64,000 nt of DNA from an uncultured Bacteroidales bacterium (GCA_902785075.1 CACZXN010000002.1:22991-86990); one strand, 5' to 3'. Positions 31,310 through 37,670 are shown, numbered from the stretch's first letter. Notes: generated from the letters alone by a model not told the origin. Program-made: numbers and translations.

Positions 31310-32160
31310 TTACTTCGTATAAATTTCGTTGAAATTAGCTGGGCTCTTACCGTTGTTAACCTGGACTTTTGTCCATTCATTTGATGGAGAAACGATACAA
31401 TCCCATGCGTTCTTGTCTCCAACAAACTCCTTAAATGTACCATCATCATTTGCTACCCAATATTGGCTTGCAAGCAGATTGTCAGTTGGAGTTTCGCTGA
31501 TAACTCTACCTTCAGCATTGGTAGTAACATCCAACAAGTAAGGTTTGTTGTCCTTCATATAAACATGAAGGTCTAACTTCTGATAGTCATACAGCATTGC
31601 AAATGCATTTACATAATACTCTGGATGCTCTTCTGAAGTAAATGTTACTGTAGATTCATCAAACATCGGTTTGAGGTCTTCACGAGTGACAGGAATAGTT
31701 TCGGTTGGGTTTTCTTTATTAACGATTTCGCTATTGAAGTAGTTCCATACCTCGAAGGTAATACCATCCTGATATGTGTACTGCAGATAGTCGAGAGCGG
31801 CTTGAGAAATACCCTCAGTAGTTACACGGATACCACCATCTTCATACTGTACCTTTACCTTTATTTCTTCGTTGGCTGTCTTGGTTTCACCATCCTTTTT
31901 ATATTCACCTGTTACAGTATAAATATAGGTGAAGCTACCACCTTCGTATGTTGCGTCCTTTCCAGGATTAGAATACTGATAATTTGGATCCAATTGGTGG
32001 CTATATACAATTGCCATATCGTCAACATCGCAATAGTAATCCTTTGCTACAGGGATGTATACCTCAACATCAGTCAATGCGCGTACATGGATAGACAACT
32101 TAGTTGCGATATAGTCATCCACTTCCTTCTCATCATTAACTGAGAAATTAATCTCTACTT
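31310..32160. repeat. high-identity duplicated block (C-terminal domain of paralogue A), partner 33747-34600
   Basis: Roughly 90% nucleotide identity by eye at a constant offset of 2440 bp. There are perfect runs of about 50 nt, e.g. 31580-31630 = 34020-34070. Confidence 0.85.
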
Positions 32161-33460
32161 CGTCTGCAGGAACAATGTCTGTGATATGCTCTTCAATTTC
32201 TTCACCACCACCACCATTATCACCTTCTGCTGGGATCAGCTTAATTACCCAGTCATTGAATACCTTGTCGCCTGGTAAGTATTCGCCAGAGTTCTTCTTT
32301 GTTTGGTAATCATAACAGAGATACAGGTTCTTCTCACCATTGAATTCAATCACATAGAATCTGTAAGCATCATGCTTTGTATTTTCTGTATCACCCCATG
32401 AATCATGATAGGTAGGATCTTCTACAGGAACATTGATGAGAAGTGCACGTGGGCCACCCACTGCGTTATAGTCGTTACGATGTTTTGAGAAGGCTACAAA
32501 ATCCATCTGCTGACTACCTACTACGTCATGTGATGCACCATTGTGGTCTTTCAAAGTTGGGAATTGCGAGCATTTATATTCAAAGAAGCTACCACCCACA
32601 TTCTGGATGAAATAAGTAGTTAGGTTACAAGTCAAGCCACCCTCGTCTGGATGCGCTGCAAGGTATGCCATTACATAGTCGTACTCAGCCTGAGAAACAT
32701 TTTCACCACGATCAGTCTTTGCTGGAGCCTTGTCAACATATTTTGCATATTCAGCAGGCATGTGCTCCTTTGTAGTGTTTTCCCAGTCTTGTACCTTGTA
32801 GTAGTTGCTATTTACAACAACGTCTGTGCCAGAACCACCTTGACCCGCAGTTGCTGGAGTAACCTTGAACACCCAATCATTGTAAACATTATCATCATCT
32901 CCATCCAAACCAAGATAAATGCTGCCACTTATATCAAACAATTTGTACTTGTTGGAAACAGTTGCACCATTCTTATCAAATGTTACATTTGTTAGTGGAG
33001 TATTGATAAACACGACATCATTCCAATAATATTGGTTTGAACTACTAACTAAAAGTCCATTTATAGTGAAATTTGTTAATCCTACAGGATTGCCTCCCAC
33101 CCACTGAACATAAAAATCTGTTACATCAGTAGTTGTCTCTGTAGCAGATGTTATAGCTGATAAAGCAGCCTGCTTTTCTGAATCTGACAAGTCATTAGGA
33201 AAATTATAACCTTCTGGAGCATTCCATGAATAACAAACTGCTGCTGCACCTTCTCCTCTTGTTTCAGCTTTAGTAGTTAATGTACTAGCAAGTACATTTC
33301 CGTCAGAGTAGACAACGAAATCAGGTGTCTTTACGATTTGCATAGTAAAACCTTGTCGTCTGTAGAAATCTTCAAGAGTGTCGTCGCTTTTACATGCGAA
33401 GAACACATTAGCACAAAGAGTAGCAATAGCTAAACTCCACAATACATAGATTTTCTTCAT
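31310..33460 (-). CDS. surface lipoprotein paralogue A (unknown family), 716 aa
   Basis: The ATG at 33460 gives MKKIYVLWSLAIATLCANVFFAC, a lipobox. The N-module and the C-terminal roughly 280 aa are shared with 33747..35606. The ORF-track start at 33541 lies in the 5' leader. Confidence 0.8.
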   Translation of the reverse strand: MKKIYVLWSLAIATLCANVFFACKSDDTLEDFYRRQGFTMQIVKTPDFVVYSDGNVLASTLTTKAETRGEGAAAVCYSWNAPEGYNFPNDLSDSEKQAALSAITSATETTTDVTDFYVQWVGGNPVGLTNFTINGLLVSSSNQYYWNDVVFINTPLTNVTFDKNGATVSNKYKLFDISGSIYLGLDGDDDNVYNDWVFKVTPATAGQGGSGTDVVVNSNYYKVQDWENTTKEHMPAEYAKYVDKAPAKTDRGENVSQAEYDYVMAYLAAHPDEGGLTCNLTTYFIQNVGGSFFEYKCSQFPTLKDHNGASHDVVGSQQMDFVAFSKHRNDYNAVGGPRALLINVPVEDPTYHDSWGDTENTKHDAYRFYVIEFNGEKNLYLCYDYQTKKNSGEYLPGDKVFNDWVIKLIPAEGDNGGGGEEIEEHITDIVPADEVEINFSVNDEKEVDDYIATKLSIHVRALTDVEVYIPVAKDYYCDVDDMAIVYSHQLDPNYQYSNPGKDATYEGGSFTYIYTVTGEYKKDGETKTANEEIKVKVQYEDGGIRVTTEGISQAALDYLQYTYQDGITFEVWNYFNSEIVNKENPTETIPVTREDLKPMFDESTVTFTSEEHPEYYVNAFAMLYDYQKLDLHVYMKDNKPYLLDVTTNAEGRVISETPTDNLLASQYWVANDDGTFKEFVGDKNAWDCIVSPSNEWTKVQVNNGKSPANFNEIYTK

Positions 33461-33746: not shown

Positions 33747-35606
33747 TTACTTCTTGTAGATTACATTGAAGTCTGCTGGAGTAGTACCAGTGTGAGTTGT
33801 TTCAACTGTGTAAGCAGCAGGAGGAGTAACTGTGCAATCCCAAGCATTCTTATCACCTACGAATTTCTTGAATGTACCATCATCATTAGCTTCCCAGTAC
33901 TTCGTATCGAGCAGATTACTTGTTTTAGTTTCAGAGATGATATTACGATTAGCATCACGAACAACATCCAACAGATAAGGTTTATTATCATCACCCATGT
34001 AAACATCGAGATCAACCTTCTGATAGTCATACAGCATTGCAAATGCATTTACATAATACTCTGGATGCTCTGTTGAGGTAAATTTGACTGTAGATCCATC
34101 AAACATCGGTTTGAGGTCGTCACGAGTTACAGGAATTGTTTCGGTTGGGCTATCTTCCTTAACGATTGCGCTATTGAAGTAGTTCCATACCTCGAAGGTA
34201 ATACCATCTTGGTACTTGTAATTCAGATAGTCAAGAGCTGCTTGAGAAATACCCTCGGTAGTTACACGGATGCCACCTTCTTTATACTCTACCTTTACCT
34301 TTATTTCTTTGTTGACTGTCTTGGTTTCACCATCCTTTTTATATTCACCTTTTACAGTATAAATATAGGTGAAGCTACCACCTTTGTATGTTTCGGTCTT
34401 TCCAGGATTAGAATACTGGTAGTTTGGATCCAATCTGTGGCTATATACAATTGCCATATCGTCAACATCGCAATAGTAATCCTTTGCTACTGGGATGAAT
34501 ACCTCAACATCAGTCAGAGCACGAATGTGGATTGACAGTTTAGTTGCGATGTAATCGTCCTTCTCCTTCTTGTCGTTTACTGAGAGGTTGATCTCAACTT
34601 CGTCAGTAACAACCGAAGTAGTATTTTCTCCACCTTCATTTTCTCCTTCGTTTCCTCCTTCTTCATTTTCATTGTCGTCATCAGGAACAGTAATATCTGT
34701 ACCATCAGCATGAGTGATCTTGATTACCCAGTCATCATAAACACCATCACCAGGATATACGAATGGGTTACCAAAATCATCAGTCTTTGACATACGATAG
34801 TCGAAGCAGAGATAACAACTCATCTTGCCTTCATACTCAATATAGTAGTACGTAAATGCATCATGATTCCAATTTGCTAAATCGCCGTACATTGCCTTAT
34901 AACTAGGTTTAGTCAAAGGAATTTTGTCATAGAAGCATAACAGACGATGTCCCTGGTGTGAAGTATAAGGATGAGATTCGCCAGCAATATGAATATTATC
35001 AAAATACAGGTAATTCATCACATTTCCACCAATATAGGTCTCTGTGCGATATCCCGTATGATTCCAATTCGGAATTTGGAAATCATACTTAGTGTCACTT
35101 GAACCTACATTTTGTACGAAGTAATCCTTCTCAACGGTACATTTATCCTTTGCTTCCTCAGGATGTTCTTTAATATACTTCATCACATAAGCATATTCAG
35201 CTCCAGAAACCCCCTCTACACCACTTTTACCATCATTAGATTTCAAAGGTGCATTAGCAGCATATGGAGCATAAACGTCTGGTATTTCTTTATAACCTGT
35301 AGTATGCCAAATTCCATTAATCGATCCTCTATAATCATAAGCCTCAACTAAAAAGTAATCTACACCTTCCACAGGTTCAACAATATCACCTTCACCACGA
35401 GTTTCAGCACGAGTAGTAGTAGATAATGTGCTAGCAAGTACATTTCCGTCAGAGTACACAACGAAATCAGGTGTCTTTACGAGTTGCATCGTAAAACCCT
35501 GCCGTCTGTAGAAATCTTCGAGTGTGTCGTCGCTCTTACATGCGAAGAACACATTTGCAAAAAAAGTAGCAATAGCTAAACTCCATAAAACATAGATTTT
35601 CTTCAT
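33747..35606 (-). CDS. surface lipoprotein paralogue B (unknown family), 619 aa
   Basis: MKKIYVLWSLAIATFFANVFFAC lipobox. Shares the N-module and C-terminal domain with A. Acidic linker DDDNENEEGGNEGENEGGEN precedes the conserved domain. Confidence 0.85.
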   Translation of the reverse strand: MKKIYVLWSLAIATFFANVFFACKSDDTLEDFYRRQGFTMQLVKTPDFVVYSDGNVLASTLSTTTRAETRGEGDIVEPVEGVDYFLVEAYDYRGSINGIWHTTGYKEIPDVYAPYAANAPLKSNDGKSGVEGVSGAEYAYVMKYIKEHPEEAKDKCTVEKDYFVQNVGSSDTKYDFQIPNWNHTGYRTETYIGGNVMNYLYFDNIHIAGESHPYTSHQGHRLLCFYDKIPLTKPSYKAMYGDLANWNHDAFTYYYIEYEGKMSCYLCFDYRMSKTDDFGNPFVYPGDGVYDDWVIKITHADGTDITVPDDDNENEEGGNEGENEGGENTTSVVTDEVEINLSVNDKKEKDDYIATKLSIHIRALTDVEVFIPVAKDYYCDVDDMAIVYSHRLDPNYQYSNPGKTETYKGGSFTYIYTVKGEYKKDGETKTVNKEIKVKVEYKEGGIRVTTEGISQAALDYLNYKYQDGITFEVWNYFNSAIVKEDSPTETIPVTRDDLKPMFDGSTVKFTSTEHPEYYVNAFAMLYDYQKVDLDVYMGDDNKPYLLDVVRDANRNIISETKTSNLLDTKYWEANDDGTFKKFVGDKNAWDCTVTPPAAYTVETTHTGTTPADFNVIYKK

Positions 35607-35901: not shown

Positions 35902-37044
35902 TTATTCTCTATCGATATAGTAGATGTTGTAGTTATCGGGCAATTGATAGTATTTCGTCTCAACATCATAAGGAACGTCAGCATTGTTCTCGTGTACTAA
36001 TGGATATTGTTCGCCACTAAATTTGACGGTACAATCCCATTCGTTCTTATGTCTGAGCAGGAGATAATCTTTCGAAGGTGACCCATCGCTACGTGCTGGT
36101 CGTACCCAATACTTAGAATCGAGCAATTCGGTACATTCTTTATCTTTATAAGGTATTTGCATTCCTGTTTCTGAATCCACCTTGCTATACACGGTTTCCT
36201 GGCAATTGTTGACTCTTTTGAATTCATTCACATAGATATAGGGCCGCTCAGAGAAATCGATGGTAGCTCCACGATTGAAATTATCGCGCAAAGCATCGCG
36301 TGTTATCGTTGGCATGAAATAATTCCATATATCAATCTGAATACCCTCATTGAAGGCACGCTTCAGATAAGCAATCACATTATCGGTCACACCCGTGATG
36401 GTAACCTCAACACCTTCTGTTCCATTTTCAATACGCCCATAACCTACTTTTGCAACAACCGTGTCACTGCTAACAAGACAAGTCATCGATGCTTCACCAT
36501 AGATAGTTTTCAGTTTTGAGATGTGATTTGATGGTTGAATCGATGAGACGTAAGACTTAGCCATCATGTCCAAAGCATGTCGATTGTTATATGTGAAATA
36601 CTGAGCACTTAGCGGCAGAAATACAGCTACATCAGTAGGTGTACGGAAATAGAGAGACAGCAGAACAGCTCTGAAATCCGTTTCGTCCCAAGTTCGCAGG
36701 GCTTCGAACATATCGTTATCAGCAGCCACATAGAGCCTGGCAGAAACTTGATCCGTCACTTCCATTCGCTCACCATTAGAAAGAGTGATATGCTCTTTTT
36801 CAGCACGAGTTTCGAGAGTGTTTGTTGTGCTCGAAAGTACAAAGTCTGAACATTTGAATACAAAATCAGGAATGGCTACAACCCTCATTTTCTGATTGAT
36901 ATAGGCATCAGAATCATCTGTGTCATCACAAGCCAACAAACTGCCCGTCAACGCAACAACTGCAATAACGGCTATCGTATTTTGAAGAAGTGTCTTTGCA
37001 TATCGCAACATCACTTTTGAGGATTTTAACAAATTCGCTTTCAT
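35902..37044 (-). CDS. surface lipoprotein paralogue C (divergent, core-only), 380 aa
   Basis: Lipobox ...ALTGSLLAC. Shares the blocks IPDFV...ETR, IWNYF and NEWDCTV with A and B. Alternative start at 37011. Confidence 0.75.
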   Translation of the reverse strand: MKANLLKSSKVMLRYAKTLLQNTIAVIAVVALTGSLLACDDTDDSDAYINQKMRVVAIPDFVFKCSDFVLSSTTNTLETRAEKEHITLSNGERMEVTDQVSARLYVAADNDMFEALRTWDETDFRAVLLSLYFRTPTDVAVFLPLSAQYFTYNNRHALDMMAKSYVSSIQPSNHISKLKTIYGEASMTCLVSSDTVVAKVGYGRIENGTEGVEVTITGVTDNVIAYLKRAFNEGIQIDIWNYFMPTITRDALRDNFNRGATIDFSERPYIYVNEFKRVNNCQETVYSKVDSETGMQIPYKDKECTELLDSKYWVRPARSDGSPSKDYLLLRHKNEWDCTVKFSGEQYPLVHENNADVPYDVETKYYQLPDNYNIYYIDRE

Positions 37045-37089: not shown

Positions 37090-37211
37090 CAAAGATACAA
37101 TAATTTTTCCAAATAAATGAATATTTACGGCAGAAAACTACTGAAACGCAGCGAAATAGGTGTGTTTTTTGAGAGAATGCATTGAAAGTTAGGAATTATT
37201 TGTTATCTTTG
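37090..37211. promoter_or_regulatory. divergent promoter region (CAAAGATA for paralogue C; TATCTTTG for the Cys-rich gene)
   Basis: Reverse-complement TAnnTTTG box at 37090-37097. Forward box at 37204-37211, 25 nt upstream of the ATG at 37236. Confidence 0.5.
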
Positions 37212-37235
37212 CAGAAGAAATCAAACAATCTATCT

Positions 37236-37670
37236 ATGCCAAAGAAGTTTTACCGTTCTACCCCGATTGATTACGCCGTGTGCCAATATGCAGATTGCCC
37301 TTTGGCTGCCAAATGTCTGCATCAGTTGACCTATCAGCCTTTGTTGGCAGAAGTAACGATTTTGAAATTATTGAATCCCAATAAATGTTCGAAAGACGAA
37401 ACATGTGAGTTCTTTCGCGACTCAAAACCCGTGATGTATGCACGCGGATTCAAGCATTTTCAGCAACAGCTGTATCCTGAACAATATAAGCGTTTTTCTA
37501 TCCGATTGATGGGCGAATTCGGGCGTACAGGCTTCTACGAACGGCGTAGAGGCGAAACTGCCCTTTCGCCAAAAGAACAGCAAATCGTACTCTCTGTGCT
37601 TCAGGAAGTTGGAGCGACTGGCGAATTCAAGTTCAGCTCGTACGAGGAGAATTACAATTGGTTTGATTAG
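37236..37670 (+). CDS. small Cys-rich cytoplasmic protein, unknown function
   Basis: 144 aa from MPKKFYRSTPIDYAVCQYADCPLAAKCLH, with further Cys in NKCSKDETCEFF. No signal peptide. The ORF-track TTG start at 37182 overlaps the promoter box. Confidence 0.65.
   Translation: MPKKFYRSTPIDYAVCQYADCPLAAKCLHQLTYQPLLAEVTILKLLNPNKCSKDETCEFFRDSKPVMYARGFKHFQQQLYPEQYKRFSIRLMGEFGRTGFYERRRGETALSPKEQQIVLSVLQEVGATGEFKFSSYEENYNWFD

Follow-up and report, generated by a model that had tools for sequence, protein, structure and literature searches.

A conserved N-terminal hairpin and T-R-A loop in an unnamed family of Bacteroidales surface lipoproteins, with a proposed C11 protease cleavage site

We analysed a 64,000-nucleotide stretch of DNA from an uncultured Bacteroidales bacterium (GCA_902785075.1, CACZXN010000002.1:22991-86990), hereafter the window, in which three paralogous lipoprotein genes, designated A, B and C, lie in tandem on the minus strand. 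Open reading frames (ORFs) and their translations defined a 716-aa protein starting with MKKIYVLW for A (31310-33460) and a 619-aa protein of an unnamed family for B (33747-35606), while the ORF and alignments defined C (35902-37044) as a 380-aa protein with its N-terminal module joined directly to its C-terminal domain. As read from sequence and structural models, the parts follow one order: a signal peptidase II (SpII) signal peptide with a lipidated Cys, an acidic export signal and a tether of 15-25 residues, a hairpin, a loop bearing T-R-[A/S/G], and the body. We propose that the hairpin and loop form a tether or pro-segment that would be cut by a C11 protease after the Arg, and we give this reading an even chance on the strength of motif, models and analogy. 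The original prediction for this region had described a conserved segment behind the lipidated Cys, ending in an Arg, and had proposed its proteolytic maturation in the manner of type V pilins. The conserved segment and its Arg were confirmed in A, B and C, and the peptides quoted for them were exact in the sequence.

The signal peptide and lipobox of B, MKKIYVLWSLAIATFFANVFFA-C23, occupy 35538-35606, with the codon of Cys23 at 35538-35540, and are followed by the putative acidic export signal and flexible tether KSDDTLEDFYRRQGFT (residues 24-39; 35490-35537), which follows on from the Cys as C-K-S-D-D. The beta-hairpin module, MQLVKTPDFVVYSDGNVLASTL, covers residues 40-61 (35424-35489), and the loop behind it (35388-35423) holds two basic sites, STTTR66↓AETR70↓GEG (arrows mark known or proposed cuts), with the codons of R66 at 35409-35411 and R70 at 35397-35399. 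The hairpin module and loop of A read MQIVKTPDFVVYSDGNVLASTLTTK64↓AETR68↓ (33257-33343), the end of the segment being TTK64-AETR68-GEG with the R68 codon at 33257-33259. The corresponding segment of C, MRVVAIPDFVFKCSDFVLSSTTNTLETR80-AEKE, comprises the hairpin module MRVVAIPDFVFKCSDFVLSS (residues 53-72; 36829-36888) and the loop TTNTLETRAEKE with T79-R80↓A81 (36793-36828; R80 codon 36805-36807). The region originally marked in B (35395-35606) corresponds to residues 1-70, and that in A (33250-33460) includes R68; the region marked in C (36830-37011) was slightly short, as R80 lies about 25 nt beyond it.

Sequence prediction placed the lipobox Cys at residue 23 in A and B and at residue 39 in C, and this Cys was aligned in at least 90% of a 100-protein family alignment. 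The residues behind it, CKSDD in A and B and CDDTDD in C (family consensus C-[ST]-[SN]-[DE]-[DE]), fit the Bacteroidota lipoprotein export signal, which is K-(D/E)2 or SDDDD after the Cys (PMC5080379). That signal spans only positions +2 to +6, and the hairpin and T-R-A site, 20-45 residues farther on, are specific to the family. The distance from Cys to Arg was 45 residues in A, 47 in B and 41 in C, in agreement with the original estimate of about 45.

An exhaustive phmmer search with B as the query returned 313 relatives, nearly all of them lipoproteins sharing the same N-terminus. We assembled a set of 258 family proteins from database matches and from ORFs of 79 genome loci; a profile search of an index of 5.8 billion proteins added 3 proteins, and the alignment was deepened from the 79 loci instead. 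A hidden Markov model (HMM) of the module matched 220 of the 258 proteins and gave the consensus L-V-K-x-P-D-h-x-h-Y-S-G-x3-L-G-x-T-F, followed by a loop of variable length and then T-R-A. Module columns held S in 91%, G in 75% and P in 70%, and the T-R-A columns held T in 74% (plus S in 9%), R in 75% (plus K in 7%) and A in 50%, with A/S/G together at 75%. Among 190 non-identical N-termini, 145 (76%) carried [ST][RK][ASG] within the 27 residues behind the hairpin, 10-13 residues past the S-G of the module, compared with 3.2% of 3800 control windows taken within those proteins, a 24-fold enrichment at the module. The motif was found in none of 194 Pro/Asp/Glu-rich linkers ahead of the C-terminal domain. 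The conservation of motif and module is far above chance and is general to the family.

The same architecture of N-terminal module, variable inserts and conserved C-terminal domain was found family-wide, and in the proteins sampled the module always came with the C-terminal domain. A 34-position profile of the module, searched for other protein bodies against 250 genomes of the same GTDB family, matched almost only family genes in 9 genomes, with low sensitivity. All full-length orthologues of C retain [ST][RK]-A, and those down to 45% identity retain [ST][RK]-A-E. A simple explanation for the shared N-terminus would be identity left over from recent duplication, free of functional constraint, and the first 60 or so residues of A and B are indeed nearly identical, their main divergence lying in the central region. 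However, C retains the segment and module, as had been stated originally, at an overall identity to A and B of only 31-36%, and the module occurs in 220 proteins of several Bacteroidales families at 20-40% identity. This family-wide conservation refutes the leftover-identity explanation, to which we assign a negligible probability.

The family alignment also shifted the residue of interest. The T-[RK]-A column of the family corresponds to TK64-A in A, TR66-A in B and T79-R80-A81 in C, and the ETR of A (R68) and B (R70) is a second basic site four residues past that column; A and B thus have two basic sites side by side, against a single one in C. The ETR described as invariant is present in all three proteins, but the near-identity of A and B reduces them to about two independent copies, and the column conserved in the family lies four residues earlier in A and B.

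We predicted the structures of C and B with AlphaFold from the 100-sequence alignment, obtaining a mean predicted local distance difference test score (pLDDT) of 81.8 and a predicted template modelling score (pTM) of 0.77 for C, and a pLDDT of 82.3 and a pTM of 0.61 for B. In both models the N-terminal module was a two-strand hairpin with pLDDT of about 80-86, formed by predicted strands at residues 47-52 and 55-59 in B (pLDDT 81-86) and at residues 60-65 and 68-72 in C (pLDDT 77-85). The tether of B was of low pLDDT (means of 52-55 for ten-residue blocks over residues 21-40, and below 50 at residues 20-25 and 37-39). The T-R-A loop was the sole stretch below 50 between hairpin and body, covering residues 75-82 in C (TLETRAEK) and residues 63-81 in B, with both Arg residues inside it. 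The body is modelled as optional central domains plus a conserved alpha/beta C-terminal domain, which alignments place from DEVEINLSV (residue 335) onwards in B (33750-34604), at 31313-32164 in A and at 35905-36753 in C. This domain contains three predicted helices of about 11 residues each in C (155-165, 221-231 and 249-259), and a conserved strand, YNxIY, stands at the extreme C-terminus (residues 374-377 in C and 615-618 in B).

The conserved tripeptide, its position in a disordered loop of variable length and the small residue at P1' point to a site of recognition and not to a residue packed for structure, and the placement of the Arg in a loop predicted to be disordered and exposed fits a protease site, in keeping with the maturation originally suggested, although its assignment to the pilin class is unsupported. 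The amphipathic pattern conserved in the hairpin suggests that the hairpin packs on something, which may be the body, as a small pro-segment or clamp comparable to the pro-domains of BFT, Fab1 and BcpT, or a partner protein. In the chief rival to cleavage, the site is never cut: hairpin and T-R-A loop would serve permanently for structure or docking, perhaps clamped on the protein's own C-terminal domain or bound to a partner, which could be an outer-membrane protein or an adjacent lipoprotein, and the Arg would be kept for binding. The alternating hydrophobic pattern and high pLDDT of the hairpin agree with docking, as do the constant company of the C-terminal domain and the presence of many members of about 500 aa in a conserved gene block with possible partners, namely a DUF1573 lipoprotein, a HEAT-repeat membrane protein and TPR proteins. 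However, both models predicted T-R-A to be disordered, and the motif is retained across preceding loops of differing length; linear recognition sites behave in this way more typically than packed residues do. In addition, P1' is small (A/S/G) in 75%, as in protease sites, and the site is duplicated in tandem in A and B. We regard a purely docking role as doubtful, with a tangible minority chance of being right.

Proteolysis of this kind has precedents among C11 proteases. Fragipain cuts BFT at QTR↓A (PMC9308784), the sites being R211-A212 in BFT and R200-A201 in Fab1 (PMC8406203), and it is reported to free numerous proteins from the B. fragilis cell surface (PMC9308784, PMC8406203). Doripains cut the lipoprotein BcpT after LTR65 and LTR199, R65 lying 48 residues past the lipidated Cys (PMC9308784). 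Like BFT, Fab1 and BcpT, the proteins of the present family are predicted SpII lipoproteins with acidic residues behind the Cys and an N-terminal region ending in x-T-R↓A; the family T-R-A presents the same P2-P1-P1' residues as the known C11 sites, and the 41-47 residues between Cys and Arg in A, B and C are close to the 48 of the first BcpT site. Enzymes of the fragipain type are surface lipoproteins in their own right, and the genome studied here also encodes one. Its only C11 clostripain-like peptidase (PF03415, E 1.3e-50; contig G000:C6, ORF L086:393-1622) is a 409-aa lipoprotein with CSKDDDSSEND after the lipobox, predicted from its sequence to be surface-exposed like fragipain. The T-R-A motif, the BcpT-like distance from the Cys and this C11 lipoprotein of the same genome together lead us to propose a C11-mediated cut after the Arg.

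From these elements we infer the following course. The lipoprotein would reach the cell surface or outer-membrane vesicles, where an Arg-specific surface protease, for which the C11 lipoprotein of the same genome is the best candidate, would cut the loop after the Arg. The cut would break the covalent link between the body and the lipid anchor with its hairpin, and the body would then either be freed or be held non-covalently by the hairpin, as by a pro-domain. Proteolytic maturation of the family is plausible on the strength of motif and models.

Several points weigh against this proposal. Cleavage is a prediction for every member of the family, and about a quarter of the members have no recognisable [ST][RK][ASG] at the module position. 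R↓A is also the site of type V pilins (PMC13655056), so that the motif alone identifies neither the protease nor the outcome. A C11 gene was also found in 5/5 other carrier genomes tested, but C11 peptidases are common in Bacteroidales, and their co-occurrence with the family is weak evidence that does not discriminate. Simple shedding needs no conserved hairpin, so the module probably does more than tether. A tblastn search of B against a plasmid collection, from which pBCPT is possibly missing, gave no match that would indicate relatedness to BcpT. The family further differs from BFT, Fab1 and BcpT in that its pro-segment would be a hairpin of 30 residues, in contrast to pro-domains of 180-200 residues, and in that no immunity-type small gene was noticed here. 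Unlike BcpT, it has no second T-R-A site before the C-terminal domain (0/194 proteins).

Type V pilins, likewise proteins of the class Bacteroidia, have a comparable N-terminal layout. They are made as lipoprotein precursors, consist of two transthyretin-like beta-sandwich domains and polymerise by strand exchange (PMC8512630, PMC13655056), after a cut at an exposed Arg (R46↓A47 in FimA, R49↓A50 in Mfa1) has removed the N-terminal anchor strand (PMC13655056); their systems also include an anchor pilin without a cleavage site and accessory pilins (PMC8512630, PMC13655056). Applied to A, B and C, pilin-like maturation would mean that a cut after the Arg removes the N-terminal strands and that the groove is filled by a strand of another subunit or paralogue, giving a fibre or surface assembly. 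The family shares with FimA and Mfa1 the lipoprotein precursor and the N-terminal beta-strands ahead of an exposed R↓A-type site (PMC8512630, PMC13655056), and its tandem paralogues, found in arrays of 3-5 in some Muribaculaceae, and the conserved YNxIY strand at the very C-terminus would suit such an assembly. However, none of the pilin Pfam families, among them P_gingi_FimA, Mfa_like_1, Mfa2 and Fimbrillin_C, matched A, B or C at E<=1, whereas PF13149 (Mfa_like_1) picked out four further genes of this genome. The models are alpha/beta, with the three helices described above, and not two transthyretin-like sandwiches, and no pilin was among the top 50 Foldseek PDB matches of C and B, a comparison in which no positive-control pilin model was passed through the same pipeline. 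An Mfa-like pilin of the genome had no PDB match by sequence and was hence unusable as such a control. The removable element would here be a two-strand hairpin rather than a single strand, and the Arg lies farther from the Cys than the 27-29 residues seen in type V pilins, a greater distance that had originally been remarked for FimA.

The gene layout, which had been read as compatible with a pilus-like or other protease-matured surface assembly, argued in the same direction. All three paralogues keep the Arg, leaving no anchor-type subunit, and the gene is single-copy at 69 of the 79 related loci. No pilus accessory genes were found nearby in the window, and the families recurring as neighbours at the 79 related loci contain no pilus genes either. 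The genome's real pilins have a different N-terminus: in two Mfa_like_1 proteins, L104:423-1373 (minus strand) and L105:208-1197 (plus strand), a single N-terminal strand is followed by VARR 31-34 residues after the Cys. No gingipain was found in the genome; a gingipain was rejected as the processing protease, the sole C25 match being PorU, the type IX secretion sortase. The comparison with the pilin fold that the original prediction called for thus returned folds unrelated to type V pilins, and membership of A, B and C in that class is not supported by the models. We consider maturation of the pilin type very unlikely here; for strand exchange of that kind on a different fold, nothing speaks specifically beyond the N-terminal layout and the conserved C-terminal strand.

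The identity of the family was sought in sequence and structure libraries. An hmmscan of A, B and C against Pfam-A at E<=1 returned 0 families, searches of NCBIfam and PDB sequences with A, B, C and the family profile gave no real match, and source databases label the members 'hypothetical protein'. One PDB sequence match, 8b6a, was set aside, as it covers the signal peptide and export signal alone. Foldseek searches of the C and B models against 350,542 PDB chains gave nothing at E<0.001; the best match of C had E 0.026 and that of B had E 0.0096, and TM scores reached at most about 0.3 when normalised to the target and stayed below 0.2 when normalised to the query. The C model had no match among the viral structures of BFVD. 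Sequence and models place A, B and C in an unnamed family of Bacteroidales surface lipoproteins with a predicted fold that is unmatched among the structures searched. Module, family and fold have no description in the libraries searched; protease-matured surface lipoproteins are already known as a kind. A more specific form of the C11 proposal, in which the hairpin acts as a plug that can be removed from a new fold and a C11 cut at T-R↓A frees or activates the body for vesicle release or strand-swap oligomerisation, appears improbable to us. Separately, a central beta-sandwich of B (residues ~150-300) showed a weak Foldseek likeness to family 3 carbohydrate-binding modules (CBM3; 1nbc, probability 0.69, E 0.011).

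Surface lipoproteins, displayed or shed, account for much of the working proteome of Bacteroidales. To our knowledge, protease-controlled maturation of such proteins is understood in few cases, namely type V pili, BFT, Fab1 and BcpT. The present family adds several hundred proteins with one fixed N-terminal module bearing a putative C11-type site. If cleavage takes place, C11 substrates could be predicted by a sequence rule drawn from the module, secretion engineering in Bacteroides would gain a natural release tag, and the function of a protein family abundant in rumen and gut would become approachable. If the hairpin proved to be a plug, this would be a second, non-pilin class of protease-triggered surface-lipoprotein maturation, employed by an entire family of uncharacterised proteins in gut and rumen Bacteroidales. 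If cleavage were not confirmed, the module would still be a clean family signature that merits definition as a domain.

Beyond the three genes, the array has as neighbours in the window a DUF6078 protein, an M16 peptidase and an SNF symporter. The DUF6078 gene (37182-37670, plus strand; Pfam E 3.8e-34) is divergent from paralogue C; DUF6078 did not appear among the recurrent neighbour clusters of related loci, for which the Pfam scan covered just a few cluster representatives. A fourth, distant paralogue was found elsewhere in the genome (L083:778-2007, contig G000:C26), encoding a 409-aa protein with a lipobox and CTNEEND, and its degenerate N-terminal module ends in INYAFTK↓ADL.

At related loci in Prevotella-type genomes, members of about 500 aa lie in a recurrent same-strand block made up, in this order, of a DUF1573 lipoprotein, the family gene, a 428-aa HEAT-repeat membrane protein and two TPR proteins of about 800 aa. 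Examples are L046:4301-4822, L058:3710-4993 and L074:11954-14483, and equivalents occur at about 18-28 of the 79 related loci; the block does not adjoin the A-B-C array of the window. The DUF1573 protein, a candidate partner should the hairpin dock, is a beta-sandwich lipoprotein. In metagenome-assembled genomes (MAGs) of Muribaculaceae, tandem arrays of 3-5 paralogues of differing lengths resemble A-B-C (L071:3391-14432, L074:3287-8948 and L078:5687-13449). The family is patchy, occurring in 1 of 300 genomes sampled evenly across the order and in 15 of 251 genomes sampled from the same GTDB family, with 6 of 13 in the same genus. Its loci come from Prevotella/Segatella-type Bacteroidaceae, Muribaculaceae and Paludibacteraceae, mostly from rumen and gut MAGs.

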